64,000 nt of DNA from Oceanispirochaeta sp. (lineage in GTDB: Bacteria; Spirochaetota; Spirochaetia; DSM-2461): the NCBI GenBank assembly GCA_963666275.2, contig CAXXOA010000001.1, forward strand, positions 576,001-640,000, in the 5' to 3' direction. The notes under the pieces were generated by a model. The model did not search any database. It saw only the letters and a program-made list of their open reading frames with translations, and was not told the origin of the DNA. This document shows positions 33,045 to 51,507 of this stretch, piece by piece (position 1 is the first letter of the stretch; the number at the start of each line of letters is the position of its first letter). The position numbers were made by a program, and so were the translations under genes.

Positions 33045-34610
33045 ATGATTACCTTCTGCCCCACAGAGATGCTTTCCATTGCCAATGAGCTCAATTACAA
33101 CTATTTCCTTTGTGATGAGACCATGATGGAATGGAGCCTCCTTTCGGTTCCCTTTCTCAGAATTCTCCAGCTGGATTCTGAAATCATGGAAAAGACCCCC
33201 CGGTTCTGGATCTCCCTGGTAGACTGGAAAGGCAGGGATCCGGAAGAGACACTGAGGAGCGGACTGGACAACGAGGGAAACTGCAGCATTACCCTTCCAT
33301 TCCGTACAGGGAACAGGGAGGAGACAAGGATTCATCTGCGGATCAGTAATCCCCTCCCTGACAATACGGGCAACACCCTACGTATGGGGTCTGCGGAAAT
33401 TGCCGGAGAGGATGTTTTCTATAAGCAGGAAGCCCTCCTTTCCCGGGATAATGAAATTGAGATCAGCGCCCGGATTCAGAAAACCCTTCTCACCGGGAGC
33501 ATTTCGGAAAATCACAGCGGATTAATCATAGAGGCCGAAACCATACCCTCCCGGGAAGTGGATGGAGACTTTTATGAATTTCTCCAGCTTACTCCGGAAA
33601 TCACGGACTTCCTTATCGGAGATGTCATGGGGAAGGGGGTTCCCGCGGCACTGCTGGGAGCGGCTGTAAAAACAGCCTATTACAAATCGGTGATTACAAA
33701 CCGGATGGGAAAAACACACCTTCCCGGTCTGGCATCCATGCTGCACAGCATCGACGGGCTCATTGGGAAGGATCTTCTGGCTCTGAAGAAATTCCTGACC
33801 CTCTATTTCTGCCGCCTGGACAGTGAAAAATCGCTTCTGAGTTTTATTGATGCCGGGCATACAAGCTTTATCTATCAGGATGCCCGTGACGGCAGCTGCT
33901 GGCATGTGAAAGGGGCCAATATGCCCCTGGGATTTTCGGAATCCCAGGACTACAGAACCTACCATCTGCCACTCAGTAAAAATGACATCCTCTTATTCTA
34001 CTCCGACGGGATTCCCGAAGTCGCCAACAGCGAGGGGGATATTTTCGGCTATGAGCGGATCAGGCAGTTTGTCCTGGCCCACAGGCATCTGGAACCGGCA
34101 GAGCTGCTGAAGAGCCTTTTCAATGTGGCCTTTTATTTCGCTTCCCAGGCCTTTGCGGATGATGTGACCGGTGTTGTGATCAAGGTGGACCATGAAAAGG
34201 CATCTCCCCCCGTAGAAAAACAGTTTCATTTTGACAGGGAGAACCCGGCGGAAATGAGATCTCTGCGGGAATCCTTTGAATCGGATCTGAAAGATCTTTA
34301 TCCCGAAGAGTTCAGCGATGATTTCATAAGACTGACTTTTGCTCTTATGGAAGCCTGCGGAAACTGCATTGTTCACAGCAGGGGCGAGTTCTCTCTGGTC
34401 TGGAGGATGTTCAGGAACAGTGTGGAAATCAATCTGGACTTTTCGGGATCCGACTATAACTGGACCGCCCAGTCCGAACCTTCTGCGGAGAGCTATAGAT
34501 CCAACGGATACGGCAGCTACCTGATTCAACAGGGGACGGATTCTCTCCTTCTTATGAAAGGGGGCGGGGCATCAAAAAGGCTTCAGCTCTATAAGGAATT
34601 TTGTCAATGA
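33045..34610 (+). CDS. PP2C/SpoIIE serine phosphatase fused to an RsbW-like anti-sigma kinase domain
   Basis: GDFYEF, IGDVMGKG, YSDGIPE, DDVT phosphatase motifs; C-terminal EACGNCIVH...GYGSYLI HATPase motifs. Confidence 0.85.
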   Translation: MITFCPTEMLSIANELNYNYFLCDETMMEWSLLSVPFLRILQLDSEIMEKTPRFWISLVDWKGRDPEETLRSGLDNEGNCSITLPFRTGNREETRIHLRISNPLPDNTGNTLRMGSAEIAGEDVFYKQEALLSRDNEIEISARIQKTLLTGSISENHSGLIIEAETIPSREVDGDFYEFLQLTPEITDFLIGDVMGKGVPAALLGAAVKTAYYKSVITNRMGKTHLPGLASMLHSIDGLIGKDLLALKKFLTLYFCRLDSEKSLLSFIDAGHTSFIYQDARDGSCWHVKGANMPLGFSESQDYRTYHLPLSKNDILLFYSDGIPEVANSEGDIFGYERIRQFVLAHRHLEPAELLKSLFNVAFYFASQAFADDVTGVVIKVDHEKASPPVEKQFHFDRENPAEMRSLRESFESDLKDLYPEEFSDDFIRLTFALMEACGNCIVHSRGEFSLVWRMFRNSVEINLDFSGSDYNWTAQSEPSAESYRSNGYGSYLIQQGTDSLLLMKGGGASKRLQLYKEFCQ

Positions 34611-36274
34611 ACAAAGCAGACAGCCCTGTCCTTCTGGCAGATTCGGTCTACTGGCTCGGTTCTACCAATGCCTCGGATTTTCTTCAGATTAATGTCTATC
34701 TTGTCTTCCGCAACGGAAAAGCCCTGCTCATTGACCCGGGCCCGAAAGATATCTTTCCCCAGATACGCAGAGCCCTGGAAAGCCTTCTGCCTCTGGAGGA
34801 GCTGTCGGGGATTGTCCTTTCCAACCAGAATCCCGATGTCTGTTCCAGTATCTCCCTCTGGGAGGAGAGCGGTTTCAGGGGGAATATCCTGGCTCACTGG
34901 AAAAACGGGGTATTTATCAATGCCTATGGTCTGAAAAACTCCGTTACCTCCATAAAAGAGGTTCAGGCCGGAATCGGGAATCTGCCAGAACATATCCGGT
35001 TCTATCCCTTTTCTCTGGGGCATGATGCCTTTCTGGCAACCTTTGACGAATCCACGGGAACCCTCTTTTCATCTGTTTTTTTCGGGGCCTTCGGACGCTC
35101 GCAAAATCTTTTTGCCCAGCCGGCGTATGCCAACCGGATGATTTACTATCACAGGAATTTCATGCCTTCAGGCCGGGAGATCCTTCCTGTCCTGTCTCAG
35201 ATCGAAGCCCTGACTCCCCGGCTGATCTGTCCCCATCATGGAGAGATCATCGAATACGGCAGTGGGGATCTCTGTTTACAGCTGAGAAATGCCGTTGAAG
35301 ATCCTTCTGCCGGAGACGGCCAGACCGGGGGAGAGGATGACAGGGAATGGGATCTTGAAAAATTCGAACTCAACGAGGAGCTTGTTCTCAGCAGTGATGA
35401 GAAGCTCGTGGATCCTGTAACGGGTCTTTACAACTCCAGTTTCTATTTCGGGTACCTTCCCGGATTTATCGAGGCCAATCCCGGAGGGACAATAGGGTAC
35501 CTCAGGATTGATAAAATGATGGCTTTCAATCAGGCCTTCGGGTTTCAGGAGGGAGATCGCATCATAGCGACTTTTGCCACAATCCTCCAGGATAACAAAC
35601 CGGATGAGGCCTTCCTTTTCAGGGATTCCGGGCCCATGCTTATACTGATGCTTCCCGATTCGTGTACATCCAATCACCTGGATATCATCGAATCCCTGCA
35701 GAACAGCGTCAGGGATTCAGATGCCTTTATTCAGGATATGACCTGCAGTGCCGCTGTTGTTTCCGTGGAGGAGGCCCGGGAAAAAGAGGGGGAGGCCGCA
35801 GAAAATGTTCTTGCTCTGATCCGGGAGAGACTGGGGATTCTGGGCTCCCAGGGAACCCATTCCATGTGCAATTATTCCAAGTCTGCCGAGGAGCTGGTAC
35901 AGAAAACAAAGATTCTGATCATAGACCCCGGTAATATATACACCCACCTCCTGGTGGAGTATCTGACCTTCCGCGGAATGGATGCTGAAATATGCCGAAA
36001 CGGAACAGACGCCCTGAGGCAGATTGATCTTCTGCATCCCGATCTTATTATATGTGAAACCCAGGTACCCCAGATGGATGGATTCAGAATCCGGGAGCAG
36101 CTCCTTCGTTCCTGGGATTTAAGGAATATCCCCTTTGTTTTCATCTCCCATCTTAAAACGGTAGAGTCTGTCAAAAGGGCTCAGGATCTGGGGGTTTTCC
36201 ATAATCTGAAAAAGCCTGTGATGCTTTCCGAAGTGGAAGGTCTGATCCTGCACCTGCTGGGGAGCCGAGAGTAG
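34607..36274 (+). CDS. MBL-fold (ODP/flavodiiron-like) + degenerate GGDEF + atypical receiver domain protein
   Basis: INVYL..LLIDPG, SNQNPDV, ICPHHG; DPVTGLYN...FNQAFGFQEGD...FRDSGPML; C-terminal REC (PDLIICETQVPQMDG, KKP). ATGA overlap with the upstream gene. Confidence 0.75.
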   Translation: MNKADSPVLLADSVYWLGSTNASDFLQINVYLVFRNGKALLIDPGPKDIFPQIRRALESLLPLEELSGIVLSNQNPDVCSSISLWEESGFRGNILAHWKNGVFINAYGLKNSVTSIKEVQAGIGNLPEHIRFYPFSLGHDAFLATFDESTGTLFSSVFFGAFGRSQNLFAQPAYANRMIYYHRNFMPSGREILPVLSQIEALTPRLICPHHGEIIEYGSGDLCLQLRNAVEDPSAGDGQTGGEDDREWDLEKFELNEELVLSSDEKLVDPVTGLYNSSFYFGYLPGFIEANPGGTIGYLRIDKMMAFNQAFGFQEGDRIIATFATILQDNKPDEAFLFRDSGPMLILMLPDSCTSNHLDIIESLQNSVRDSDAFIQDMTCSAAVVSVEEAREKEGEAAENVLALIRERLGILGSQGTHSMCNYSKSAEELVQKTKILIIDPGNIYTHLLVEYLTFRGMDAEICRNGTDALRQIDLLHPDLIICETQVPQMDGFRIREQLLRSWDLRNIPFVFISHLKTVESVKRAQDLGVFHNLKKPVMLSEVEGLILHLLGSRE

Positions 36275-36275
36275 G

Positions 36276-39119
36276 ATGAGTATAGACTGGATTGTCATTA
36301 TCTTCCTTATTATTGTCCTTTCAGGGGCCAATATCGCTGTTCTGACCGCGACAATTCTCACAAAGAAGAATTCTGTCAGCAGATTCAGAAGCCGGGAACG
36401 ATTGCGATCCATAGTGAACCGGTCGGTAATCAGGAATTCTCTGGGGAGTACGGAGGCTCTTTCAGAACAGGATAAAATTCCCTTTTTTCTGGAGTGGCAT
36501 GAAGTCAGCAGCCACCTCGAAATCTCCGGCGTTCTCAGAGAGGAACTGGAAACCCTGGCCATTGAGTGGAACCTTCCCCCGGTGATCGAAGATCTCCTGA
36601 AAAGCCGTTTTTTCAATAAAAGAGTGACTGCCATGAATGTGCTGGCTTTTCTTCCTGAAAAAGAGAAACTGGCAGCATTGCGTGAGGCTTCCCTCCGGGA
36701 GACATCGGTTATTCTGAGGCTGAGAATCACTCAGATGCTCTGCAGTGAAGGTTCCCTTGATGCTGTGGACTATATCATTCACAGTCTTCAGGGACGTCAG
36801 GAATTTTATAAAAAAAAGGTTCTGGGGATTCTGGAGGACAATGTCACTCTGATGATCGACTGGGCTGATGTGAACAGAGAAAAAGAGGAGCGCGATGCCC
36901 TGAGGATCCTGATCCGGGCGGCGGGGACGAATCTCAGGGAGTGGCACTATGATTTTCTTGTTGCCCAGTCCAGAAATCCCGACAGACTGATCGCCCGGGA
37001 GGCTGCGGGAGTTCTGATGAACCGGTTTTCAGACAGAAATACCCTGGATTTCCTTATGGCATCTGAAGAGGGGAGCCTGAGGCAGAAGGCTGTATACCGC
37101 TTTACAAGGGATATGGCACTCCCTACGGAAGGGGAACTTCTTGAACTTTTCCGGACAAAAGAGCTCTACTCCTATGCTGTCTCGGGGCTGATTGAAAAAG
37201 TTCACAGTGATCCCCGTCTGATATCGGAACTTTTCCGCCGGTATCAGGTCGCCGAGACCCTGGAGGAGAAACAGGGGTATGCGGCGGTGCTGGCAAGCAG
37301 AGTCCAGTATTTTATCCGTCGCTTGAAGAGTGATGAGAGCGCGGAAGTCCGGGAACTTCTCTCGGATATGGTCGGTCAGGGCATGGGTGCTCCCATCATC
37401 AACTTCCTCAATGCCAATAAGAGTCCTACCCTTGAAACGCTCCTTCTGGAGACCATCCAGCCACTGACTCTGGAAAATCCCGAGTTTCTGGAACTCTGTC
37501 AGTACTATCTGGGAAACCGGCTGAAGAGAAAACTGGAACTTCCTCAACGGGTTGAAGAAGAGGGCACTCCCAAAATACAGCTGACCCGGAAAGACCGCCT
37601 TATTATGGTGACACTGGCTCTTTCCACTCTGCTGCTGCCCCTGGCAATCTACGCTGCGGCCTACGGCAGAATCTTTCCCTTTATGCTGGCCAGAGAACGG
37701 GTTGTATCGTTCCTCCTGCTTTACCATTTCGAGTTTGCCTTTTATTCCATTGCGATCAACTCAATCTCGCTGATCCTTATGTTCCTCTCCTGGACTGTCA
37801 TAAGAGAACAGAGGACCTCCTGGAAGGCTGTGGACAAGAAATTCCTCTTTTCCCGGGGGATTCTTCCTTCTGTGACCATCCTGGCTCCCGCCTATAATGA
37901 AGAAAAAAGCATCGTTCAGAATATCTACTCCCTCCTGTCTCTGGAGTACCCGGACCTTGAACTTATTGTGATCAATGACGGTTCAAAGGACAGAACTTTC
38001 CAGAACCTGGTGGACAACTTTGATCTGGAACTGGTGGACTATCCCATTCCCGATTACATTCCCACCGCTCCCATTCTGGGGCTCTATCGAAATGAACATA
38101 TTCCCAACCTTCTGGTGATAGACAAGAAAAACGGGGGAAAGGCCGACTCTCTGAATACAGGGCTGAATGCCGCCCGGGGGGAGTATGTGTGCAGCATCGA
38201 TGCGGACAGTCTTCTGGAACCCGAAGCCCTGACGAAGATGATGTTTGAAACCATCAACAGCGAAAAACAGACCATTGCCGTAGGAGGGAATATCATTCCT
38301 GTGAACGGCTGTATTGTACAGAACGGCGGAATCCGGGAAATCCATCTCTCCCATAACAAATACTCCCGGTACCAGACCATTGAATACCTCCGTTCCTTTA
38401 TTGCCGGTCGTCTGGGCTGGTCCAAACTGAACAGTCTCATGATAATATCCGGAGCATTCGGAGCATTCCTGAAGCAGGATCTTCTGGATATCGGGGGATA
38501 TATGACAGGAACTGGCAGTATGAAGAAAGATACTGTCGGTGAGGATATGGAGCTTGTGGTCAGGCTTATCCGGCATCATTACGAAAAGGGCGAGCCCTTT
38601 TCGGTGGGATACTCCCACAATGCCAACTGCTGGACCGAAGTCCCTGAAAACCTGCCGGATCTTCTCAAGCAGCGGGGGCGCTGGCACAGGGGACTCATCG
38701 AGATACTGCTTTATCACAGAAAAATGCTCTTCAACAGAAAATTCAAGGTTGTGGGTTTTCTGGCGTTTCCCTATTTTTTCCTTTTTGAACTTCTGGGGCC
38801 CTTCTGGGAGTTCCTGGGATACTTTGTTCTTATGGCATCCCTCTTTCTGGGGCTGCTGAACGGCACAATATTCCTTTTTATGTTTTCCATTATTGTCCTT
38901 CTGGGCAGTCTGGTTTCCTCTACGGCCCTTCTGCTGGCCGAGAGCGATGTGCTCTACTTTAAAGGGAAGGAATTCCGCCAGAGCATTCTTACCGCTCTCA
39001 GGGAAAATTTCGGCTACCGCCAGATGATCAGCATGCACAGGGTTTTCTCCTATGTGCTTTTTCTGTTCCGGGACAGGGGATGGCAGAAACTCTCCCGTAA
39101 GGGGTTCTCCAATGAGTAA
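36276..39119 (+). CDS. HEAT-repeat domain fused to a processive family-2 glycosyltransferase (polysaccharide synthase)
   Basis: Helical repeat N-half; PAYNEE, INDGSKD, NGGKADSLN, IDADS, GEDMEL, QRGRW motifs; flanking TM helices. Confidence 0.85.
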   Translation: MSIDWIVIIFLIIVLSGANIAVLTATILTKKNSVSRFRSRERLRSIVNRSVIRNSLGSTEALSEQDKIPFFLEWHEVSSHLEISGVLREELETLAIEWNLPPVIEDLLKSRFFNKRVTAMNVLAFLPEKEKLAALREASLRETSVILRLRITQMLCSEGSLDAVDYIIHSLQGRQEFYKKKVLGILEDNVTLMIDWADVNREKEERDALRILIRAAGTNLREWHYDFLVAQSRNPDRLIAREAAGVLMNRFSDRNTLDFLMASEEGSLRQKAVYRFTRDMALPTEGELLELFRTKELYSYAVSGLIEKVHSDPRLISELFRRYQVAETLEEKQGYAAVLASRVQYFIRRLKSDESAEVRELLSDMVGQGMGAPIINFLNANKSPTLETLLLETIQPLTLENPEFLELCQYYLGNRLKRKLELPQRVEEEGTPKIQLTRKDRLIMVTLALSTLLLPLAIYAAAYGRIFPFMLARERVVSFLLLYHFEFAFYSIAINSISLILMFLSWTVIREQRTSWKAVDKKFLFSRGILPSVTILAPAYNEEKSIVQNIYSLLSLEYPDLELIVINDGSKDRTFQNLVDNFDLELVDYPIPDYIPTAPILGLYRNEHIPNLLVIDKKNGGKADSLNTGLNAARGEYVCSIDADSLLEPEALTKMMFETINSEKQTIAVGGNIIPVNGCIVQNGGIREIHLSHNKYSRYQTIEYLRSFIAGRLGWSKLNSLMIISGAFGAFLKQDLLDIGGYMTGTGSMKKDTVGEDMELVVRLIRHHYEKGEPFSVGYSHNANCWTEVPENLPDLLKQRGRWHRGLIEILLYHRKMLFNRKFKVVGFLAFPYFFLFELLGPFWEFLGYFVLMASLFLGLLNGTIFLFMFSIIVLLGSLVSSTALLLAESDVLYFKGKEFRQSILTALRENFGYRQMISMHRVFSYVLFLFRDRGWQKLSRKGFSNE

Positions 39120-42036
39120 AAAGCGTACACTCCTGCTTTCAGTCCCCGCCTTTCTTCTCTTTCTCCTTCTGGCCTTCCCTTTTGCCTACTGGCAGTTCTC
39201 CCCAGAGAGCGGTCTGGATATCCTTGTCTGGGAAAAGGAGGCTTACTCCGGCAGAAAAACTCACCCTCTGGAGTGGCTTTTCCTGTACAGGAAAGACCAT
39301 GTAACAGGAAATCGGACGATCCGGGAAGGAGATCCCAATATGATCCTGTTTTCGGGGGATTTCAGTTTCTCGTCCATCAATGAAGCCATAGAAGAGGCGG
39401 ATAGGATGAAACGGGCCGCCCTGGAGAGTGTCTATGCCTTCTGGGACGGTTCTGTGGCCGATGAGGCAGCAAGTCCCGCTCTGCGGAGCCGGATTGAGCA
39501 GTTTCTGCAGGTGGATTTTTCAGGCTGGACTCTGAAATATGATACGGATGAGGGGCCCTCTCTTGTTTTTATCTCTCTGACCGGAGAACGAGTGACCCTT
39601 CAGGGGGGGACGCATTTTAACGGTTTTGCTCCTTCCGTGTTCTGGGAAGGAAACGAGGTCTCCGTTAAAACCTACCTTCCCGTCTACCGTACCACAGAGA
39701 GCACCTCTTCTGAAGTCTCGGTGGATCTGCATCTGACAGAAGCGGGAGAGGACCTTCTCAGATCCCGGGGAATTCCCACGGAAATTCCCCTGATTATGGA
39801 GCACAGGAGCCCTCTGGGAAAAGCCGGATTCTCGGCGATCAGTTTTTCACTGCTCGAAGGGCTGCCCGGATCCCACCGGGTGGCGGGGCGGCTCTTCTAT
39901 AAGGCCGAACTGGCTCTGTTCAGCAATAACCTTTCCGAACTCTACTGGAGGATTTTCCTTCCCTGGCTGGATAGTAGGTCCCGTTCCCTCGGGGAGGATA
40001 GAGGATCTCCGCATCTTCGGGAAGAACCGGTCCGCTTTGTTCTGGATCAGGCAGGGTTCAGGAAAGTGGATCCGAAGGGAGGGGACAGCTCCTTCTATCT
40101 TCAGGGGGTCAATCTGGGGCCGGCTGTTCCGGGCCGCTGGTTTACCCAGTTTCCCGAGGATGAACACCTCTATTACAGATGGTTTACACAGATGAAGGAG
40201 ATGAATCTGAATACTGTGAGGATTTACACTCTGCTGCCTCCCTCCTTTTACAGAGCCTTTGAGCTGTTCAATCAAAACCATCAGGAGGACCCCCTCTATC
40301 TGATACAGGAAATCTGGCCCGAAGAGCATCCTCCCGGAGAGAACTATCTGGACTCCGCCTATGATGCGGCCTACCGGGAGGAGATCCGTCTGAATGTAGA
40401 CGCCCTTCACGGAAGGGCACAGGTAGCCCCCAGAACAGGACGGGCCTGGGGAGAGTATACGGCGGATATATCGCCCTGGCTTCTGGCCTGGCTTGTGGGA
40501 AGGGAACTGGAACCCGATGAGGTTCTGACTACCAACGCCCTCAACCCCGATTCCATATACCGGGGCAAATGGCTTTCCGCTCCCGAAGGACCGGCTACCG
40601 AAGCCTGGCTGGCCTCTGCCTGCGATCTTACCGTTGCCTATGAAAGGGAGAACTACGGGAGTTCCCGGCCCGTGGGGATTGTGAGCTGGCCTATTCTGGA
40701 TAGGCTCTCCCATCCGGTGGAGTGGATCGATCCCGCTCTGGAGGGACGGTCTCCCGCCAATGATAAAGCAGTGGTGGACATTGAAAGGATCCTTGTGGAG
40801 GATGCCTCTTTCGGAGGTTTTTTCGGAGGGTATCATATCTATCCCAACTACCCGGATTTTATGAACAACCAGTCCAGCTACGCTTCCTACACCGATCAGG
40901 AGGGAACCTTCCGCTACGGCGGCTATCTGCAGGAGTTTATGGCTTCCCATACAAAATATCCCGCCATCATAGCCGAATACGGGATTTCCACCAGTGCCGC
41001 TACGGCGCATCTGAATCCCGACGGCTATCATCACGGCGGTCTGACAGAAGAGATTCAGGGGCAGGGGATTATCCGGATGGACCAGGCGGCCCGGCGGGAA
41101 GGGTTCAGCGGAACCCTCATTTTTGAATGGATCGATGAATGGGCCAAGAAAACCTGGACCACTGAACCCTTTATGATTCCCTATGACAGGCAGGCCCTGT
41201 GGCAGAATGCTCTGGATCCGGAGCAGAATTACGGAATCATGGCTATGGAGGGAATCTCCCGGAGGGGAGAGAACAGCTCTCTTGATACGGAGGGAAAGAC
41301 TCTTATGACTGCCTGGGGATCCGAGTCCCATCTCTATCTGGAAATTCCCGATTCCCCTTTCACAGAAGGGGCAGGGAAGATACTGATAGGCCTGGACAGC
41401 TATAATCCCATGGAAGGGCTGCGGCAGTTTCCGGGTATTCCCGAACCAGCGGTTCCCACAGGCATAGAGAGCCTTGTAGAGCTCAGCCTGAAAGAAGATT
41501 CCGCCCGGATACTGAACATAAGCAGTTACAGCATTGCGGAAAAATCCTTTCGTTCCCGCTCCGGTGATGACCAGGAGTTCGTACCTCTGACCTATCTTGT
41601 GAACAGGGGCTATGTGACAGAAAAGGGTGAGACCGTGCCGCCGGGATATACTGACTGGAGCCGGCTCCACCGGGGAGCTTTTCCGCAGAACTACTACTCT
41701 GTATTCAGACAGGAGAAAGGAATTACCATCAGGATCCCCTGGACACTGCTGAATGTGTCCGATCCCTCTTCCGCCATGGTTCTGGATGATCCCGGACCCA
41801 TCGGCAGGATTCCCGAGCGGGACGGAATCAGAACCGCCCGGAGCCGGGAAATACTCATCTACTCCCTGGCCCTTTCGGATGAGGGTTCACTTCTGGGGAC
41901 CATTCCCGCCGGATTTGCCGAAACAGGAGACGCCCTCTCCTTTGTCTGGGAGCCCTGGGATGTTCCTGTTTACAGGCAGAGAGAGAAGGATTCTGTGGCA
42001 CTACTGGGAGAATACTTTTCCCGGGTTTCTCCTTAA
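39112..42036 (+). CDS. Membrane-anchored clan GH-A glycoside hydrolase/transglycosylase-like protein
   Basis: N-terminal TM; YLQGVNLG, NTVRIYT, VGRELEP, YHIYPNYPDF, IAEYG, FEWIDEW, EQNYG. Start at the ATG at 39112, overlapping the GT2 stop. Confidence 0.7.
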   Translation: MSKKRTLLLSVPAFLLFLLLAFPFAYWQFSPESGLDILVWEKEAYSGRKTHPLEWLFLYRKDHVTGNRTIREGDPNMILFSGDFSFSSINEAIEEADRMKRAALESVYAFWDGSVADEAASPALRSRIEQFLQVDFSGWTLKYDTDEGPSLVFISLTGERVTLQGGTHFNGFAPSVFWEGNEVSVKTYLPVYRTTESTSSEVSVDLHLTEAGEDLLRSRGIPTEIPLIMEHRSPLGKAGFSAISFSLLEGLPGSHRVAGRLFYKAELALFSNNLSELYWRIFLPWLDSRSRSLGEDRGSPHLREEPVRFVLDQAGFRKVDPKGGDSSFYLQGVNLGPAVPGRWFTQFPEDEHLYYRWFTQMKEMNLNTVRIYTLLPPSFYRAFELFNQNHQEDPLYLIQEIWPEEHPPGENYLDSAYDAAYREEIRLNVDALHGRAQVAPRTGRAWGEYTADISPWLLAWLVGRELEPDEVLTTNALNPDSIYRGKWLSAPEGPATEAWLASACDLTVAYERENYGSSRPVGIVSWPILDRLSHPVEWIDPALEGRSPANDKAVVDIERILVEDASFGGFFGGYHIYPNYPDFMNNQSSYASYTDQEGTFRYGGYLQEFMASHTKYPAIIAEYGISTSAATAHLNPDGYHHGGLTEEIQGQGIIRMDQAARREGFSGTLIFEWIDEWAKKTWTTEPFMIPYDRQALWQNALDPEQNYGIMAMEGISRRGENSSLDTEGKTLMTAWGSESHLYLEIPDSPFTEGAGKILIGLDSYNPMEGLRQFPGIPEPAVPTGIESLVELSLKEDSARILNISSYSIAEKSFRSRSGDDQEFVPLTYLVNRGYVTEKGETVPPGYTDWSRLHRGAFPQNYYSVFRQEKGITIRIPWTLLNVSDPSSAMVLDDPGPIGRIPERDGIRTARSREILIYSLALSDEGSLLGTIPAGFAETGDALSFVWEPWDVPVYRQREKDSVALLGEYFSRVSP

Positions 42037-42154: not shown

Positions 42155-42183
42155 TTGTTGGATGAAATTTATGGGTGTATAAT
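42155..42183 (+). promoter_or_regulatory. Sigma70-type promoter for the two-component operon
   Basis: TTGTTG, 17-bp spacer, TATAAT. Confidence 0.5.
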
Positions 42184-42217: not shown

Positions 42218-43546
42218 ATGAACACTTCCATATTGATTATCGATGATAATGAACAGTTTTGTCTCAGCCTGTCCCGCATGCTGGCGGACCGGGACCATAC
42301 TCTTTCCTATGTAATGAACAGTCTGGATGCCCTGGAATTCCTCTCCCGGAATGTGGTGGATATCATTCTCCTGGATGTGCGTCTGGGATCTGAATCGGGG
42401 GTGGAAGTCCTGATACAGATCCGTGAGCTCTATCCTGCTGTGACCATTATCATGCTCAGCGGCTACGCTTCCATTGAGACAGCCGTCCGTTCCATAAAAC
42501 TGGGTGCCTTTGATTATATCCAGAAGCCTGTGAAATACGAAAAGCTGATTAAACTCATTCAGAATGCCAGGACCCTGGCGTCTCTGAAGGAGGAAAATGA
42601 GGGGCTTCAGAAAAGCCTTCAGGATGTGATTCCCCCTATTATCAGTAAAGATCCCCGGATCCGGGAACTGAAAGGAACCATTCAGAAACTCTCCGAGTCC
42701 AGTCTGCCCATTCTTCTTCTGGGAGAAAATGGTACGGGCAAGGAGGTTTTTGCAGATTACATCTACTCCCGGAGCCATCGGAAGGCGAAAAAGTTTATAA
42801 AGATAAATTGTGCTGCCTTTCCCGACAGCCTGCTGGACAATGAGCTTTTCGGCCATGAAAAAGGGGCCTACACAGGGGCGGATACCCTGTATAAAGGGGT
42901 CTTTGAGAGAGCCCAGGGGGGCACCCTCTTTCTGGATGAAATCGGGGATATGTCTCTGGAGGTTCAGGCTAAAGTCCTGAGGGTTCTCCAGAACAGAGAA
43001 CTCTACCGTCTCGGCGGCAAAGATGTCATTCGTATCGATGTCCGTATTATCTCGGCTACAAACAAGAAGCTTGAAGACAGGATTAGTGAAGGCCGGTTCC
43101 GGGAGGATCTGTACTATCGTCTCAATGCGGCCATCCTTTCCATTCCCCCTCTCAGAGAGCGGAAAGAGGATATTCCTCTTCTGTCTGATACTTTTCTCAG
43201 GGAATATGCTTCCATCAACAGCCGCCCCCTGTGCTCCCTGGATCCGGAGGTCGAGAATCTTCTGAAGCACTATCACTGGCCGGGGAATATCAGGGAACTG
43301 AAAAATGTCCTCCACTATGCCGCCGCCGTGGCCTCGGGAAACTCTATTCAAAAAGAGAATCTGCCCCTGCAGATTTTTGAAAAATCCCGGGAGGAAACTG
43401 TCTCCAATCCTCTGGATGATTCGGAAAAAGCCGTGATTCTCAGGGAGCTTAAAGAGCATCATTTCAACAAGAAGAAAGTTGCCGACAGACTCAGCATAAG
43501 CCGGACAACTCTTTACAGCAAAATGAGAAAATATGGAATCGGATAG
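42218..43546 (+). CDS. Sigma54-dependent response regulator (NtrC family: REC-AAA+-Fis HTH)
   Basis: IIDDN...ILLDV receiver; GENGTGKE, ELFGHEKGAYTGA, FLDEIG, FREDLYYRLN, WPGNIREL; HTH LSISRTTLYSKM. Confidence 0.95.
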   Translation: MNTSILIIDDNEQFCLSLSRMLADRDHTLSYVMNSLDALEFLSRNVVDIILLDVRLGSESGVEVLIQIRELYPAVTIIMLSGYASIETAVRSIKLGAFDYIQKPVKYEKLIKLIQNARTLASLKEENEGLQKSLQDVIPPIISKDPRIRELKGTIQKLSESSLPILLLGENGTGKEVFADYIYSRSHRKAKKFIKINCAAFPDSLLDNELFGHEKGAYTGADTLYKGVFERAQGGTLFLDEIGDMSLEVQAKVLRVLQNRELYRLGGKDVIRIDVRIISATNKKLEDRISEGRFREDLYYRLNAAILSIPPLRERKEDIPLLSDTFLREYASINSRPLCSLDPEVENLLKHYHWPGNIRELKNVLHYAAAVASGNSIQKENLPLQIFEKSREETVSNPLDDSEKAVILRELKEHHFNKKKVADRLSISRTTLYSKMRKYGIG

Positions 43547-45383
43547 AAAGAAAAACAGACCCATCATGACCCTTAAGAATGTATCGATCCGCTATGGATC
43601 CATCCGGGCTCTGGATCATATCAATCTGAAAATTTCAGGAGGAGAGATCCACGCCATTGTGGGAGAGCATGGTGCCGGCAAATCCACCCTTGCCAAAATC
43701 GTAGCCAATCTGATTGTTCCCGATTCGGGCAGGATCCTCTACGAAAATTCCTCCTATGAAAAACTGAATTACAAAGAGACGATCCATTCGGGAGTCCGGA
43801 TGGTTTTTCAGAAGATCCAGCTGAATCAGAGCCTCACTGTGGCGGAGAATCTTTTTATTGCCAATAAGGACTCCTTTCAGTCCCGGGGCGGTCTTTTCAA
43901 TCCCAAAAGAGTGGAACGGAAAGCCGAGGAGTTCCTCAGGGAGAATCATTTTCCCCTGAAGTCCCATGATCTTGTGGCCAATCTGGAGCTCTCGGACCGG
44001 GCTCTTCTGAGTATCGTCAAAAATCTCTTTAATCCTCCCAAGATTCTGATCCTCGACGAAGCCCTCGAGAAACTCTCTGCCGAGGGGCTGGAAAGGATTA
44101 TCCGGGCTCTTAAGGAGCTCAGCGGCAAGGGCTCGGCTGTTCTATTTATAACCCACAGAATCGATGACCTCTATATGATAGCCGATCGGGTCAGTGTCGT
44201 GCGCAAAGGGGAAATCCTGATCTCCGATAAAATTGGAGAACTGGACAAAATCAGTCTTATCAAGATGGCCTATACACAGTTTTCCAATCTTGAAAAACAC
44301 TCCTCCCAGGCGGAGGAGTTCAACAAGCTTATGAAGTACAACGAAGTGGTCCTTTCGGATCTTCCCATCAGTCTTCTCATCACGAACTATGATAACAAAC
44401 TCCGTATGATGAATCAGAGTGCCCGCAGGCTCTTTTCCATAGACAGCAGCCGGGACGTGGGAGGAATCACCCTGGAAGATCTTTTCAGAAGCAATGAAAG
44501 GATTCTCAGCTTTGTGGAAGAGGCGATCCTGTTGGGAGAGAGTTCGTCCCGCTATAACGTTCCCCTGATTCTGGACAGCCGGCATTATATGGTGAATATC
44601 GTGATTTATCCCATTTACGACAGCCTGGAATGGATAGGGAATATGTTCATTCTGGAAGATATAACAGAACGGGAGCAGCTGAGGGATCAGCTTGTGCTTT
44701 CGGATAAACTGGCCTCTCTGGGGCTTCTTGCCGCGGGGGTGGGGCATGAAATCAATAATCCTCTGGGGGTTATTTCCAACTATCTGGAAGCCTTCAGGCA
44801 GAACAAAATCGCCCAGGAGGAAAAGGTTTCCGTACTGGAATACCTATTTGAACAGATCAATTACATCAGTCAGGTTGTGGGAAATCTGATCTCTTTTTCT
44901 GAAAATCAGAAGCAGGATACGGTCTCGCTGAACCTGAATGCGGCTATCCGGAATATTGTTGAACTTATCCGCTTCAACGGCTCGAAAAACAGGATTTCCA
45001 TCCAGTTCGAGCCGGCCCGGGACGAACAGATCTTTACCGAGATCAATCCGGGGGAGTTCAAACAGGTCATACTGAATCTCTTCAGAAATGCTTTTGAAGT
45101 CCTCCAGGAGGGAGGGAATATTCAAATCCGTTTATCCCTGGAAGAGGACGAGGGGAACCGGCGGATACGCCTGGATTTTCAGGATGACGGACCGGGAATT
45201 CCCTTTGACGATCCGTCGGATGTTTTTCTGCCCTTCAAATCATCCAAACAGACAGGAAAGAATTTCGGGCTGGGGCTCTCTCTCTGCTATAACATTCTGA
45301 AACGCTACGGCGGAGAAATTTCAGTCATTTCAGAAAAAAATTCCGGCTGCTGTTTCAGGATCTATCTGATTCCGGTTCTGTAA
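43533..45383 (+). CDS. Histidine kinase with an N-terminal sugar-ABC ATPase domain and a PAS domain
   Basis: GEHGAGKST, VFQ, ILILDEAL, FITHR NBD motifs; PAS-like MMNQSARRLF; GVGHEINNPL, QVILNLFRNA, DDGPGI, GLGLSLC kinase motifs; no TM segment. Confidence 0.88.
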   Translation: MESDRKKNRPIMTLKNVSIRYGSIRALDHINLKISGGEIHAIVGEHGAGKSTLAKIVANLIVPDSGRILYENSSYEKLNYKETIHSGVRMVFQKIQLNQSLTVAENLFIANKDSFQSRGGLFNPKRVERKAEEFLRENHFPLKSHDLVANLELSDRALLSIVKNLFNPPKILILDEALEKLSAEGLERIIRALKELSGKGSAVLFITHRIDDLYMIADRVSVVRKGEILISDKIGELDKISLIKMAYTQFSNLEKHSSQAEEFNKLMKYNEVVLSDLPISLLITNYDNKLRMMNQSARRLFSIDSSRDVGGITLEDLFRSNERILSFVEEAILLGESSSRYNVPLILDSRHYMVNIVIYPIYDSLEWIGNMFILEDITEREQLRDQLVLSDKLASLGLLAAGVGHEINNPLGVISNYLEAFRQNKIAQEEKVSVLEYLFEQINYISQVVGNLISFSENQKQDTVSLNLNAAIRNIVELIRFNGSKNRISIQFEPARDEQIFTEINPGEFKQVILNLFRNAFEVLQEGGNIQIRLSLEEDEGNRRIRLDFQDDGPGIPFDDPSDVFLPFKSSKQTGKNFGLGLSLCYNILKRYGGEISVISEKNSGCCFRIYLIPVL

Positions 45384-45384
45384 A

Positions 45385-45442
45385 CTGTTCATCATCTGAA
45401 CAGAATGCTGAACATACTGTTCATGTTCTGACAGAGTGTTCA
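45385..45442. promoter_or_regulatory. Candidate enhancer (UAS) for the NtrC-type activator
   Basis: CTGTTCA-N5-TGAACAG palindrome plus further TGTTCA/TGAACA half-sites, about 110-170 bp upstream of the sigma54 promoter. Confidence 0.6.
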
Positions 45443-45554
45443 GTCTTCTGTTTACTGATCCTGCAGGTCCGATTGTATTTTTGAGAGTCTGTGAGCGGCT
45501 TCTATAGCTGTTAGAGCTGTTTTTCTCCGGAATCCCGATGATCATCCTGATAAT

Positions 45555-45570
45555 TGGCCCGGCCTTTGCA
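45555..45570 (+). promoter_or_regulatory. Sigma54 (-24/-12) promoter of the sugar ABC operon
   Basis: TGGCCCGGCCTTTGCA: GG-N10-GC with TGGC and TTGCA. Confidence 0.8.
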
Positions 45571-45615
45571 TATAGAGACTTCAATGACTCCCTGAAAGGG
45601 AAAAAGGAGAAAAGG

Positions 45616-46566
45616 ATGAAAAAATTTTTAACCCTTATGATTTGTTTACTCGTATTGATGCCTGCTTTTATTACGGCAGGAGGAGCACAGGAGCCGGAAG
45701 ATGACAAACCCGTCGTGGGTCTTATCATGAAATCTCTGGCCAATGAGTTTTTCATGGCCATGGAAGAGGGCGCCAAAGCCTATGCCGAACAGGACGGAAC
45801 ATTTAAACTTGTGACAATGGGAATGAATTCTGAAACCGACTTTGATTCCCAGGTCAATGCTGTTGACAGCCTTATCGCCCAGGGTGTGGACCTGATTGTT
45901 CTGGCTCCGGCCGATTCGGCCGGTATGGTTGCTCCTGTAAAAAGAGCTATCGATGCGGGTGTGACTGTCATCAATTTTGATGTAACTCTGGATAAAGATG
46001 CTCTAAAAGCGGCCGGCCTTCCTGAAGAATTCCTTTTTGTAGGACCCGACAATACAGACGGTGCCGAAATGGTGGGAAACTACCTGGGTGAGACTCTGGG
46101 CGACGGAGGCAAGGTTTTCATCATTGAAGGCAACCCCGGAGCTGATAATGCCAAACAGAGGAAAAACGGTTTTCTGAAAGCTGTGGAAACCCATAATCTG
46201 GAGCTCCTGGCTTCCAATACCGCTCACTGGGAAACAGAAGAAGCCAACACTCTCATGACCAACCTTCTGACAAAATATCCTGATGTGCAGGGTGTTATGT
46301 GCGCCAACGACTCCATGGCTCTTGGTGTTGTCCGGGCACTGGAAGCCGCCGGCCGGGAAGATGTACAGGTTGTCGGTTTTGACAATATCCCTGCTGTAAA
46401 AGATCTCATCATGAATGACAAAATGCTGGCTACTGTTCATATGGACGGAGCTGAAATGGCTATTCTTGCCTTCAATGCCGGATTTGAAATCATTGATGGA
46501 AAACGGGAAAACCTCGGCTGGGTACAGTCTCCGCTTGTACTGGCCAATAAAGATTTCTTCAAATAA
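45616..46566 (+). CDS. Sugar ABC transporter substrate-binding protein (RbsB-like)
   Basis: Signal peptide ..TAGGAQE; VGLIMKSLANEFF, FVGPDN, CANDSMALG, VVGFD. Start at the ATG at 45616. Confidence 0.92.
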   Translation: MKKFLTLMICLLVLMPAFITAGGAQEPEDDKPVVGLIMKSLANEFFMAMEEGAKAYAEQDGTFKLVTMGMNSETDFDSQVNAVDSLIAQGVDLIVLAPADSAGMVAPVKRAIDAGVTVINFDVTLDKDALKAAGLPEEFLFVGPDNTDGAEMVGNYLGETLGDGGKVFIIEGNPGADNAKQRKNGFLKAVETHNLELLASNTAHWETEEANTLMTNLLTKYPDVQGVMCANDSMALGVVRALEAAGREDVQVVGFDNIPAVKDLIMNDKMLATVHMDGAEMAILAFNAGFEIIDGKRENLGWVQSPLVLANKDFFK

Positions 46567-46633
46567 TGCATCTGAAATAATGAACCGGACCGGGAGTCGT
46601 GTATGCTCCCGGTCTTTCTGAGGAGTTCCATAG

Positions 46634-48139
46634 ATGAACGTGGAAAATATAATCGAACTGAAGGATATCTCTTTGAGTTTTCCCGGGGTCAAAGCTCTGG
46701 ATTCTGTCAATCTGAGTGTGCAGAAAGGGGAAATCCATATCCTTCTGGGTGAAAACGGTGCAGGTAAATCGTCCCTTGTGAAAACAATCTGCGGTGTCTA
46801 TACCCAGAACAGCGGAGACATGGTTTTTGACGGAAAGCCCTACATGCCTCAGAACCCTTTAGCTGCCATTAAAAAGGGAATTCGTGTGGTCTATCAGGAA
46901 TTCAATATTCTCTCCTATCTTTCAATCGCAGAGAATATCTTTTTTGAAAAACTGCCTGTGAAAAATGGTCTGGTTGACTATAAAAAGCTTAACAGGGATG
47001 CCCGGCTTATTATGGATAAAGTCGGATTGACTCAGATCTCCCCCAGAACCCCTGTTGAAAATCTGGGAGTTGCCCAGATGCAGCTGGTTGAAATTGCCAA
47101 AGCCCTGTCGGGAGACAGCCGTATCCTGATTCTGGATGAACCTACTGCCACTTTAATGCCCGATGAAATTGACACCCTCTTCGCTCTGCTGAAAAAGCTG
47201 CGGGACGAAGGAGTTTCCATCATATACATTTCCCATAGACTGAATGAGATCTTCCGGATAGGAGATCGTGTCACTGTTCTCAGGAACGGCAGTCTGGTGG
47301 GAACTCACCCGGCTTCGGAGCTTGATATTCCCGCTATTGTGAAAATGATGGTCGGCAGGAGCATGGAAAAGGAGTATCCCTTTGACGAAACTGTCACACC
47401 GGGAGAACCGCTGCTGGAAGTGAAAAATCTCATATTCAAGGGGAATCCCGCCGCCAGATCCTTTACCCTGCGGAAGGGAGAAATCCTGGGAATCGCCGGG
47501 CTGGTCGGATCGGGCAGAACAGAAACCATGAGGGCCCTTTTCGGGGCCGATTTAAAAGTGGCCGGTGAGGTCATTCTCAACGGTAAGAGCCTGGATATCC
47601 GTTCCCCCCGGGATGCGGTGAAAGAGGGAATCTGTCTCCTCACTGAGGACAGGAAGCAGCAGGGCCTGATCCTGGATATGAATTGTGTTGAAAATACAAC
47701 CATTACGGACCTGAAGGCTGTCTCGGTCAAGGGGTTTCTGAACAGGAATGCCGAAAGAGCCGCCACGGAAAAACAGATCCGTGAAATGAATATAAAAACA
47801 CCGGGGATAGAACAGAAAACACTCTATCTTTCCGGTGGAAATCAGCAGAAAATCCTGATTGGAAAATGGCTCTACAGGGATTCGGAAGTTTTTATTTTTG
47901 ATGAACCCACCCGGGGAATCGATGTGGGGGCCAAGTATGAAATCTACCTCCTTCTCTGGAAACTCGCATCCATGGGGCGGGGCATTATTATGGTTTCCTC
48001 TGACCTTCCCGAACTGATGGGGGTCTGCCACAGGATCGCCGTCTTTTCGGATGGAAAAATTACAGGTGAGCTTGACCGCAGTGAGTTTGATGCGGAATCA
48101 ATTCTGACCCTGTCCTACAAGGAGTATCTGCATGCATAA
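46634..48139 (+). CDS. Sugar ABC transporter ATP-binding protein (RbsA-like)
   Basis: [45 protein letters not shown]. Confidence 0.95.
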   Translation: MNVENIIELKDISLSFPGVKALDSVNLSVQKGEIHILLGENGAGKSSLVKTICGVYTQNSGDMVFDGKPYMPQNPLAAIKKGIRVVYQEFNILSYLSIAENIFFEKLPVKNGLVDYKKLNRDARLIMDKVGLTQISPRTPVENLGVAQMQLVEIAKALSGDSRILILDEPTATLMPDEIDTLFALLKKLRDEGVSIIYISHRLNEIFRIGDRVTVLRNGSLVGTHPASELDIPAIVKMMVGRSMEKEYPFDETVTPGEPLLEVKNLIFKGNPAARSFTLRKGEILGIAGLVGSGRTETMRALFGADLKVAGEVILNGKSLDIRSPRDAVKEGICLLTEDRKQQGLILDMNCVENTTITDLKAVSVKGFLNRNAERAATEKQIREMNIKTPGIEQKTLYLSGGNQQKILIGKWLYRDSEVFIFDEPTRGIDVGAKYEIYLLLWKLASMGRGIIMVSSDLPELMGVCHRIAVFSDGKITGELDRSEFDAESILTLSYKEYLHA

Positions 48140-48172
48140 AAGGAAATCGGGATTTCACAGAAGGAGAACATC

Positions 48173-49162
48173 ATGAGCGAGAAAACTGGAGTCAAATCCA
48201 TTGTCAATATTTTTCTGAAAGAGGTGGGCATCGGGGTGGTGCTGCTGGTACTGGTGGTTGCATTCAGTCTGGGAGCCCCCCGGTTCTTTTCCATTATCAA
48301 CGTAGCCAATATCTTTACCCAGATAAGCATTAATACTGTTATTGCTGTGGGAATGACTTTTGTCATCCTCCTGGGGGGGATCGATCTGTCGGTAGGGTCT
48401 GTTCTGGCCCTGTGTTCCATCATTGCCGGTAAGATCCTTGTCAATCCCAACCTGTCCCTGGGAATGGCTATTCTGCTTTCCGTGCTTGTCAGTATCCTTT
48501 CAGGTATGCTGATCGGGCTGATAAACGGCTACATTTCAGAAACATGGAAAATCCATTCCTTTATTGTGACTCTGGGTATGCTGAATATCGCCAGAGGGCT
48601 TGCCCTTCAGATCAGTCAGTCCCGGACCATTTTCAATTTTCCCAAAGCCTTCAACGACTTCGGGACAACCACCTATTTCCGGGTCCTTCCAGCCATTTTT
48701 CTTATTGCTCTGATCCTTGTGATAATGGGAAGCGTCATACTGCGAAGAACAGTGTTCGGCAGGATGATCTTTGCCATTGGAAACAACGAGGAATCGGTAC
48801 GGCTGTCGGGTCATAATGTGAAATTCTACAAAGTTCTGGCCTACACAATCTGCGGGGGAACCGTAGGAATCGCCACGATTATGTATATGCTCAGGATGAG
48901 CATCGCCAGTCCTATTCTGGGAGTGGGATTCGAACTCAATGCCATTGCAGCTGTTGTTATCGGCGGTACCAGCATGAGCGGCGGTAAAGGGTCTCTGATC
49001 GGAACATTCTTGGGAGCCTCTATCATGGGAGTTCTCAATAACGGTCTGCTTCTCATCGGTATGGGCGACTTCGCCCGGCAGATTGTTACGGGTATGATCA
49101 TCATTCTGGCTGTTATTCTGGATACCTACAGAACCAGATTTTCCGCCATTCTGAATGAATAG
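48173..49162 (+). CDS. Sugar ABC transporter permease (RbsC-like)
   Basis: GGIDLSVGS, FIVTLGM, FAIGNNEE, ELNAIAAVVIGGTSMSGG. Confidence 0.93.
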   Translation: MSEKTGVKSIVNIFLKEVGIGVVLLVLVVAFSLGAPRFFSIINVANIFTQISINTVIAVGMTFVILLGGIDLSVGSVLALCSIIAGKILVNPNLSLGMAILLSVLVSILSGMLIGLINGYISETWKIHSFIVTLGMLNIARGLALQISQSRTIFNFPKAFNDFGTTTYFRVLPAIFLIALILVIMGSVILRRTVFGRMIFAIGNNEESVRLSGHNVKFYKVLAYTICGGTVGIATIMYMLRMSIASPILGVGFELNAIAAVVIGGTSMSGGKGSLIGTFLGASIMGVLNNGLLLIGMGDFARQIVTGMIIILAVILDTYRTRFSAILNE

Positions 49163-50808: not shown

Positions 50809-51489
50809 CTATTTCAAAATATCTGCCGTTGCAGTCTCTCCTGCAAGCCGTCCGATAACAAAAGCTTCAGTGAGTCCCTGGTCCATCTGATTGGCAGTCT
50901 CTCCGCCGATATAGAGCCCTTCGATGGCAGAGCCGTCCTCTCTCAGAGCCCGGGCTTTCAGATCGATCATAACGCCCCCTCTGGTCTGCTGGCTGGCAGG
51001 GGAGATCTTGGCACCGTAGTAGGCGGGAGTATCAATCCTGCTGAACATGGAGGCCTTTCTGCCGTACTCGGAATCCACACCTGCATCGTAGTTATCAGAT
51101 CCAACATAGATAAAGTCTCCTGCTTCAGGATTTAACCTTGAATTTACTGCAACTATGGGGATTCCTGCATCGTTACACATCTTGACCGCAGGCATGCTGC
51201 CTGTCCAGTCAATCGGATTTAGAATCACACCATCAACACCCAGTGAGATGAAAGTTTCAACAGCCGCCAACTGTTTTTCAATATCCTTCATAGGATCAAT
51301 GACTTTAACTTCCCATCCTTTGGCCTCAGCGGCTTTGAGGACTTCCTCTTTCATCAGATGCTGAAAAACATCCTGGTCACTGTGAAAGGTGTATCCGATT
51401 ACGATTTTTCCATCATCTTTCTGCCCATTGGCAAAAACACCATTGATGCCCATCAAAACAACCAACAAAACAAATAATGCTTTCTTCAT
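50809..51489 (-). pseudogene. Chimeric remnant: N-terminal half of a sugar SBP fused in frame to the C-terminal tail of an FAD-binding (flavocytochrome c/fumarate reductase-like) protein
   Basis: SBP sequence up to YVGSDNYDAG, then VDSEYGR...YYGAKISPA..TRGGVMID...EDGSAIEGLYIGGE...GRLAG. Confidence 0.75.
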
Positions 51490-51507
51490 AAAAATCACCC
51501 TGTTTTA

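Follow-up and report, generated by a model that had tools for sequence, protein, structure and literature searches.

How could a soluble histidine kinase detect a sugar that lies outside the cell? The question is raised by a 616-amino-acid kinase encoded in a 64,000-nucleotide stretch of Oceanispirochaeta sp. DNA (Spirochaetota; GenBank assembly GCA_963666275.2, contig CAXXOA010000001.1, positions 576,001 to 640,000, forward strand; hereafter the window). Its gene stands between that for an NtrC-type response regulator and an operon for a CUT2-type ATP-binding cassette (ABC) importer, comprising a sugar-binding protein (SBP), an ATPase, and a permease, and its product begins with an ABC nucleotide-binding domain (NBD). 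This two-component architecture is real, conserved, and wired to a sigma54-controlled CUT2 importer, and is apparently undescribed. We consider it rather probable, while keeping a good measure of reserve, that the kinase docks where the ATPase would otherwise sit on the permease dimer, and that sugar-loaded SBP drives sigma54-dependent induction.

Architecture and ancestry of the kinase

Pfam matches in the kinase follow the order given by the original prediction, namely ABC_tran (residues 27-178, E 2.8e-24), PAS, HisKA (396-458), and HATPase_c (508-612); the PAS match at residues 272-377 reaches 21.9 bits, slightly short of the 22.6 cut-off, and the AF2 model has a PAS-like helix/strand block over the same residues. 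As a whole the model (mean pLDDT 84.6, pTM 0.48) comprises four domains, with a low-confidence linker at residues 250-269. No transmembrane (TM) segment is detected in the kinase by hydropathy, as had been predicted: the 19-residue maximum is 1.22, vs. 2.94 in the permease, and a value above 1.9 occurs in only two of 63 relatives. The kinase is thus soluble, and its sole input besides the PAS domain is a single N-terminal NBD of a CUT2 ATPase.

The motifs claimed for this domain are all found in the sequence: Walker A (GEHGAGKST, residues 44-52), Q-loop (VFQ, 91-93), Walker B (ILILDEAL, 171-178), and H-loop (FITHR, 205-209), including the Walker A Lys, Q-loop Gln, Walker B Asp-Glu, and H-loop His. 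The phospho-acceptor H405 of the HisKA motif (HEINNPL, 405-411) is invariant in the kinase family. The signature position reads LELSD, so the degenerate signature that had been reported is present, but it is not peculiar to the kinase, as it is shared by the N-terminal halves of CUT2 ATPases (SIGDQ in Escherichia coli RbsA). By this comparison, the kinase-specific feature is the missing C-terminal half with its LSGGNQQ motif.

The best NCBIfam matches to residues 10-250 (approximately) are the CUT2 sugar ATPases YtfR, AraG, AlsA, XylG, and RbsA, and the best match to residues 260-612 is AtoS, all under their equivalog cut-offs; the regulator best matches AtoC, likewise below cut-off. In a quick maximum-likelihood tree of 90 domains, 34 kinase NBDs form one branch (SH-aLRT 99) within the N-terminal halves of CUT2 ATPases and fall into two subfamilies. 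The window kinase NBD is 31% identical to the N-terminal half of the adjoining ATPase. The ABC domain of the kinase derives from the N-terminal half of the tandem ATPases of RbsA (CUT2) type. Searches of the PDB by sequence and by fold gave separate NBD or PAS-kinase matches only (whole-query TM-score <=0.35); with the kinase model, the chains listed by Foldseek match either NBDs (LivG, LptB, and MetN) or PAS-kinases, none of them covering both.

In CUT2 ATPases, the Walker A lysine is found in the N-terminal half, where the signature is degenerate, and the C-terminal half shows the opposite pattern; RbsA and NupO have one degenerate site each (PMC11466899). A kinase dimer would therefore possess two Walker A motifs and no signature. 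Whereas a CUT2 transport ATPase has two tandem NBDs, the second with LSGGNQQ, the kinase has a single N-type NBD that lacks a signature. Because the partner half that would supply this motif is absent, the domain is probably an ATP-binding pseudo-ATPase. Across an alignment of 63 rows (42 from the window kinase's subfamily and 21 from subfamily 2), K50, Q93, and D175 are kept in 100%, E176 in 92%, and H208 in 73% (90% in the window kinase's subfamily, 38% in subfamily 2), with no LSGGQ, a pattern that would fit nucleotide binding with dispensable hydrolysis. Residues P177, T178, and Q157 and the MxGR linker of the N-terminal half are replaced by the family motifs DEALEKL, ITHRIDD, and DKxxLIKxAYTQ, and new conserved residues (E179, K180, and D211) cluster at the D-loop and H-loop.

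Conservation, linkage to importers, and sigma54 output

The domain-architecture search with neighborhood analysis that the original prediction had proposed finds the fusion to be real, conserved, and linked to sugar ABC operons. With residues 1-400 of the kinase as query, 119 of the 120 homologues listed combine ABC_tran with HisKA and/or HATPase_c, the remaining one being a 381-amino-acid protein recorded as partial; those with names include proteins of Oceanispirochaeta crateris, Marispirochaeta aestuarii, and Vecturithrix granuli. The genome itself encodes three family kinases, that is, two further full-length copies. Given these copies and the listed homologues, an assembly artefact is ruled out. 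In a profile search of representatives at 50% identity, the best 150 matches are mostly full-length. There are one to six family matches in 23 of the 38 genomes of the order and matches in at least 14 of the 401 genomes of the phylum (a lower bound, as three candidates were scored per genome), and two KSB3 genomes have three matches each. The family is conserved, mainly in Spirochaetota and also in KSB3.

Among 92 matches to longer fused forms (1079-3080 amino acids) there were no kinase fusions, which is weak evidence. Nor was one recovered from 41 genomes in the class to which an Anaerolineales record belongs: the eight long-frame NBD matches retrieved there are ordinary or permease-fused ATPases, the profile not having been built for Chloroflexota forms. 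ESM Atlas lists further ABC_tran+HisKA clusters, most frequent in Actinomycetota, at 0.83, which are leads only. Separately, three loci (L199:7431-9971, L202:4691-7198, and L204:5425-8046) have a CUT2 permease joined to the tandem ATPase, at the N-terminus in a KSB3 genome and at the C-terminus in Anaerolineae.

We annotated 111 loci: the window, its two paralogues, five from a contig scan, 43 found by a motif scan, and two sets of genome matches (44 of 47 and 16 of 19), with six partial matches excluded. The motif scan is biased toward the window kinase's subfamily, and the contig scan, keyed on the generic word HEINNPL, gave five full-length loci in 80, the others serving as controls. A kinase call was obtained in 109 of the 111, and the loci are kin, hence not independent. 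An NtrC-type gene lies immediately upstream of the kinase gene in 93 of the 95 loci that have at least 1.5 kb upstream. Long flanks to either side are available for 59 loci; 57 of these have genes for a CUT2 ATPase and permease within 6.5 kb, and 53 have one for an SBP as well (threshold-based). As to orientation, 41 of the 59 have a divergent transporter gene as the nearest one, 14 have it downstream, three have it upstream on the same strand, and one has no transporter gene nearby. After clustering at 50% identity, a linked locus is present in 27 of 28 clusters, and further KSB3 loci are linked in 5/5 cases. This is far over background, which in the window's genome is 0/42 for other kinases, 0/14 for other NtrC genes, and 9.6% for random positions, and which is 2/48 for generic kinase loci. 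The predicted linkage of homologues to sugar ABC operons is thereby borne out, as is the local gene order: all five open reading frames (ORFs) are located as claimed, the regulator and kinase genes share a 14-nt overlap, and the operon has its own complete ATPase of the tandem CUT2 type.

The kinase-regulator cassette is co-inherited (distance correlation rho 0.72-0.82), vs. rho 0.04-0.34 against transporter-partner distances and 0.04-0.19 against the ATPase. These distances show that the cassette travels as a unit and swaps transporter partners. The partners are CUT2 throughout, although the genome also encodes 27 SBP_bac_8 proteins, and up to six paralogues occur per genome, each with its own operon. 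A GAFTGA-type motif was matched in 43 ORFs of the 59 loci and reads GAYTGA in the window regulator. Because of the gene overlap and co-inheritance, we strongly infer that the kinase phosphorylates the adjoining regulator, which would in turn drive the operon.

Both the sigma54 promoter predicted before the SBP gene, TGGCCCGGCCTTTGCA, and the enhancer-like repeats are present, and the genome encodes rpoN. The score of the promoter is reached by 2.5% of random 330-nt window slices, using a self-made, consensus-based matrix and a threshold chosen after the window site had been seen. Across the family, loci with a downstream operon have a sigma54 site on the side of the operon in 12 of 14 cases and on the opposite side in one of 14; for divergent loci the counts are 39 of 41 and none of 41. 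The palindrome TG[TA]-N11-[TA]CA, of which the first repeat in the window is an instance, occurs upstream of the sigma54 site in 36 of 58 family regions, compared with 6-20 for spacings of 3-10, 12, and 13. These patterns make it very likely that the regulator acts on the transporter operon. The autoinducing loop that had been predicted is upheld in part: the site switches sides with the operon, in agreement with sigma54 control of the transporter genes, but a site is aimed at the regulator in only one of 59 loci. The regulator and kinase genes thus lack a sigma54 site of their own, and any feedback would run via the transporter genes only.

The best matches of the SBP are AlsB (162 bits) and RbsB (158 bits), both under cut-off. 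A ribokinase-like gene adjoins seven of eight close relatives by inspection (two were scanned, with the best match, TIGR02152, under cut-off), and a 69% orthologue of it is present elsewhere in the window genome. Our guess is that the ligand is probably a ribose-like monosaccharide.

Other arrangements occur among the loci. The genome's two paralogous systems (L009, G000:C3:147000-166999; L010, G000:C2:37000-56999) have divergent CUT2 operons with sigma54 sites; the former continues into SDR and Dak1/Dak2 genes, and the ATPase of the latter reads as 398 amino acids plus a separate piece. Two kinases (L109:5352-7151 and L183:5803-7723) adjoin importers with single-domain (265 amino acids), not tandem, ATPases. 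NBD-less kinases with an NtrC partner stand beside CUT2 operons at L201:452-7990 (dCache-HAMP-PAS by Pfam) and L020:8081-17646 (known from ORFs only).

Possible routes from importer to kinase

In the mechanism we favor, the two-component system would borrow the sugar importer as its receptor. The two NBDs of a kinase dimer would occupy the two coupling helices of the permease dimer, displacing the tandem ATPase and giving a non-transporting complex of SBP, two permease subunits, and two kinase subunits alongside the working importer. Sugar-loaded SBP would shift the permease, and the ATP-binding, hydrolysis-poor NBDs would relay this movement via the YTQ linker and the PAS domain to the DHp helix; increased permease and SBP would then provide positive feedback. 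Since the kinase dimer lacks an intact signature and many relatives lack the H-loop His, a readout of SBP loading appears to fit better than a readout of transport flux.

Two observations, drawn from comparisons among homologues, argue for docking: in subfamily 2 the groove that faces the permease seems to be kept even as the catalytic His is lost, and one locus (L141) retains SBP, permease, and kinase in the absence of the ATPase. As a proxy for the groove we aligned the NBDs to E. coli LptB, which belongs to a different transporter class and whose coupling-helix groove has been mapped by mutation and cross-linking (Y13, L72, H73, F90, R91, L93, Q104, I105, and R150; PMC5082905). The 21 rows of subfamily 2 keep the CUT2 residues at most of these positions (Pro 95%, Ile/Val 90%, Pro 81%, Arg/Lys 95%, and Gly 86%). 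At L141 (9035-13641), the kinase (617 amino acids), permease, and SBP are intact and the orthologous ATPase is absent from the locus; nor does the genome (98% complete) encode an orthologous ATPase, the best match being 46% identical, vs. 66-69% between orthologues. The L141 permease has drifted (63-68%, vs. 82% between orthologues), and the locus is possibly a receptor-only module. In a Bacillota locus (L200:4083-12107), an NBD of this kind precedes GAF, HisKA_2, and HATPase domains in a kinase whose gene is accompanied by that for a REC-ANTAR regulator and lies ahead of a CUT2 operon; this kinase has one full-length homologue (P0357), and a quick tree (support 83) is compatible with an independent origin of the fusion and equally with a shared one. 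We advance only tentatively, as somewhat short of probable, the broader proposal of a class of receptors in which the motor ATPase is swapped for a kinase dimer bearing pseudo-ATPases, and which would have been recruited to more than one kinase class (PAS-HisKA/NtrC and GAF-HisKA_2/ANTAR) and outlived the transport ATPase in at least one genome.

Several points weigh against docking. In the 42 rows of the window kinase's own subfamily the groove is remodeled: the position of LptB F90 is Asn in 55% and Phe in 26%, that of R91 is Asp/Glu and not Pro, Gly110 is lost, and only the equivalents of Y13, L93, and R150 remain similar. The groove comparison thus appears favorable in subfamily 2 and mixed in the subfamily of the window kinase. 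Co-divergence with the permease is not significantly greater for the NBD (rho 0.31) than for the kinase core (rho 0.22; 54/63 rows), as the difference is <=0 in 16.7% of 300 resamples, and nearest-neighbor matches to the permease number 44 of 60 for both. A sequence search for a solved structure of a CUT2 permease gave no matches at E<=1. The regulator at L141 lacks the AAA+ domain, being an in-frame REC-HTH protein of 219 amino acids, and this single case could be one of decay or of use of another ATPase. Linkage by itself is expected for any regulator of an operon, the PAS domain could be the ligand binder, and one locus (L181, 4804-6564) has no adjoining transporter, its genome having six permeases of the family.

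The last of these loci also bears on a second reading, which we regard as unlikely: the NBD would bind ATP/ADP or a cytoplasmic sugar-phosphate (or the PAS domain would do so), and the kinase would read energy state or an internal inducer with no transporter contact. Such a soluble sensor would agree with the remodeled groove and with nucleotide-binding residues being the only invariant NBD motifs, and the ribokinase-like genes of close relatives could make its inducer. The neighbors of the L181 kinase are a LacI gene and genes apparently for sugar catabolism, not an importer. A soluble sensor leaves unexplained, however, why a shuffled cassette is always found beside CUT2 importers, why each of up to six paralogues per genome has an operon to itself, why the groove persists in subfamily 2 despite loss of the His, and why an ATPase-less module exists at L141. 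At L181 itself, a divergent sigma54-like site faces a Big_5/ice-binding-like gene, and the genes after the kinase are those for LacI and apparent pentose catabolism.

It is also conceivable, if improbable, that the NBD touches the ATPase of the working transporter, or transiently one permease site, and so reports on turnover or on the state of assembly, as in Bce/Pst-like flux sensing, with no receptor complex of its own. The retention of a complete ATPase in 57 of 59 loci, a partial correlation of 0.20 between the NBD and the ATPase C-terminal half, and the position of E179, K180, and D211 on surfaces facing a partner NBD are in keeping with such contact; but a kinase dimer alone can account for the new residues, those residues of the N-terminal half that are likely to face the C-terminal half or form its linker (P177, T178, Q157, and MxGR) are lost, and L141 has no cognate ATPase. 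That the NBD is vestigial, or a purely structural dimerization module left by fusion beside a transporter operon with the PAS domain as the real sensor, is scarcely credible: many members do lack the catalytic His and the signature, but mean identity within the family is higher for the NBD (36%) than for the PAS domain (28%) and near that of the kinase core (40%), the Walker A Lys, Q-loop Gln, and Walker B Asp are fully kept, and the same domain is also borne by another kinase class.

Coordinates of the locus are collected in Table 1. Elsewhere in the window, a 229-amino-acid ORF (50809-51498, minus strand) joins the N-terminal half of an SBP to a flavoprotein-like tail (FAD_binding_2) and is an apparent rearrangement scar ending a second CUT2 operon. 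Genes at 34601-42036 (plus strand) encode an ODP-beta-lactamase/GGDEF/REC protein, a GT2 glycosyltransferase with a long N-terminal region, and a 994-amino-acid protein with no Pfam match, a possible c-di-GMP-linked polysaccharide locus.

Table 1. Features of the kinase locus and adjoining importer operon, in window coordinates.
Feature	Position	Strand	Basis
Candidate sigma70-type promoter of the regulator-kinase pair, TTGTTG-N17-TATAAT	42155..42183	+	By-eye reading
NtrC-type response regulator, 442 amino acids (REC, sigma54-activator AAA+ with GAYTGA, Fis-type HTH)	42218..43546	+	Pfam/NCBIfam
Soluble histidine kinase, 616 amino acids (ABC NBD-linker-PAS-HisKA-HATPase)	43533..45383	+	ORF, Pfam, AF2 model
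CUT2-type N-terminal ABC NBD (residues about 10-249)	43560..44279	+	Walker A 43662-43688, Q93, D175/E176, H208
PAS domain (residues 272-377)	44346..44663	+	Pfam below cut-off, AF2 model
HisKA and HATPase_c kinase core; His405 at 44745-44747	44718..45368	+	Pfam
Two palindromic enhancer-like sites, 32 bp apart	45386..45433		TGTTCA-N5-TGAACA at 45386-45402; imperfect copy at 45418-45433
Sigma54 -24/-12 promoter TGGCCCGGCCTTTGCA	45555..45570	+	Matrix score
Sugar-binding protein, SBP (Peripla_BP_4)	45616..46566	+	Pfam/NCBIfam
Complete tandem CUT2 ABC ATPase (RbsA/AraG/XylG type)	46634..48139	+	Pfam/NCBIfam
CUT2 permease (BPD_transp_2, RbsC type), proposed docking partner	48173..49162	+	Pfam/NCBIfam

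Known systems and implications

The kinase system resembles transporter co-sensing in its working, yet it falls outside the Bce, Pst-PhoU, and SLC5-STAC families. Signaling from PstSCAB to PhoR, a membrane-anchored kinase, depends on an adaptor, PhoU, that binds the working ATPase PstB. In the SLC5-STAC kinases CbrA and CrbS, the membrane domain of a transporter is built into the histidine kinase. In the MalK-MalT system an ABC NBD helps control sugar-uptake genes, the working ATPase sequestering the transcription factor, but there is neither a kinase nor an extra NBD. No PhoU or Pst family member was detected among the 14 window proteins scanned, the importer being of the sugar type, and no fused membrane transporter domain is evident in the window kinase by Pfam or hydropathy.

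Among the closest known systems are the BceAB-BceS/BceR modules, in which an ABC transporter co-senses for a histidine kinase that induces the transporter genes, and PstSCAB-PhoU-PhoR/PhoB, in which an ABC importer signals to a kinase that has no periplasmic sensor (PMC10314905; PMC6978683 for both). BceS, however, is a separate membrane protein that contacts BceB via TM helices (PMC10314905; PMC6978683), whereas the window kinase is soluble and has an NBD of its own, its companion transporter is a CUT2 importer with a BPD_transp_2 permease, and the output is sigma54; in contrast to Pst, no adaptor gene is seen and the kinase has no TM helix. The 5TMR S-component receptors likewise place a transporter part inside a histidine kinase (PMC11109136), but these and SLC5-STAC kinases carry the membrane domain, whereas the window kinase carries the cytoplasmic motor domain. 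With the N-terminal NBDs of RbsA, AraG, XylG, and AlsA it shares the fold, Walker A/B, Q-loop, and degenerate signature (PMC11466899); it differs in lacking the C-terminal NBD, so that there is no complete catalytic site in cis, and in the replacement of the D-loop and C-terminal helix by family motifs running into the kinase. From NtrB/AtoS-type kinases with NtrC-type regulators, which have the same PAS-DHp-CA core with HEINNPL, it is distinguished by its ABC NBD input. No paper on an ABC NBD as kinase input was found by full-text literature search, from which subscription journals were mostly absent, and a domain-architecture table may list the fusion.

The known transporter-kinase co-sensors are separate proteins that communicate via TM contacts or adaptors, and the coupling of transporter movement to the kinase is poorly resolved in them. 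If the proposed docking is true, a kinase bearing an ABC motor domain would couple the two via a defined interface in a system that could be rebuilt from three or four proteins, and the ABC NBD would join the list of kinase input domains. It would also offer a route to the structure of an RbsC-type permease, for which the sequence search found no solved example. For the sugar-fermenting spirochaetes, it would explain how soluble kinases detect sugars outside the cell, with up to six such systems operating in parallel in one genome.

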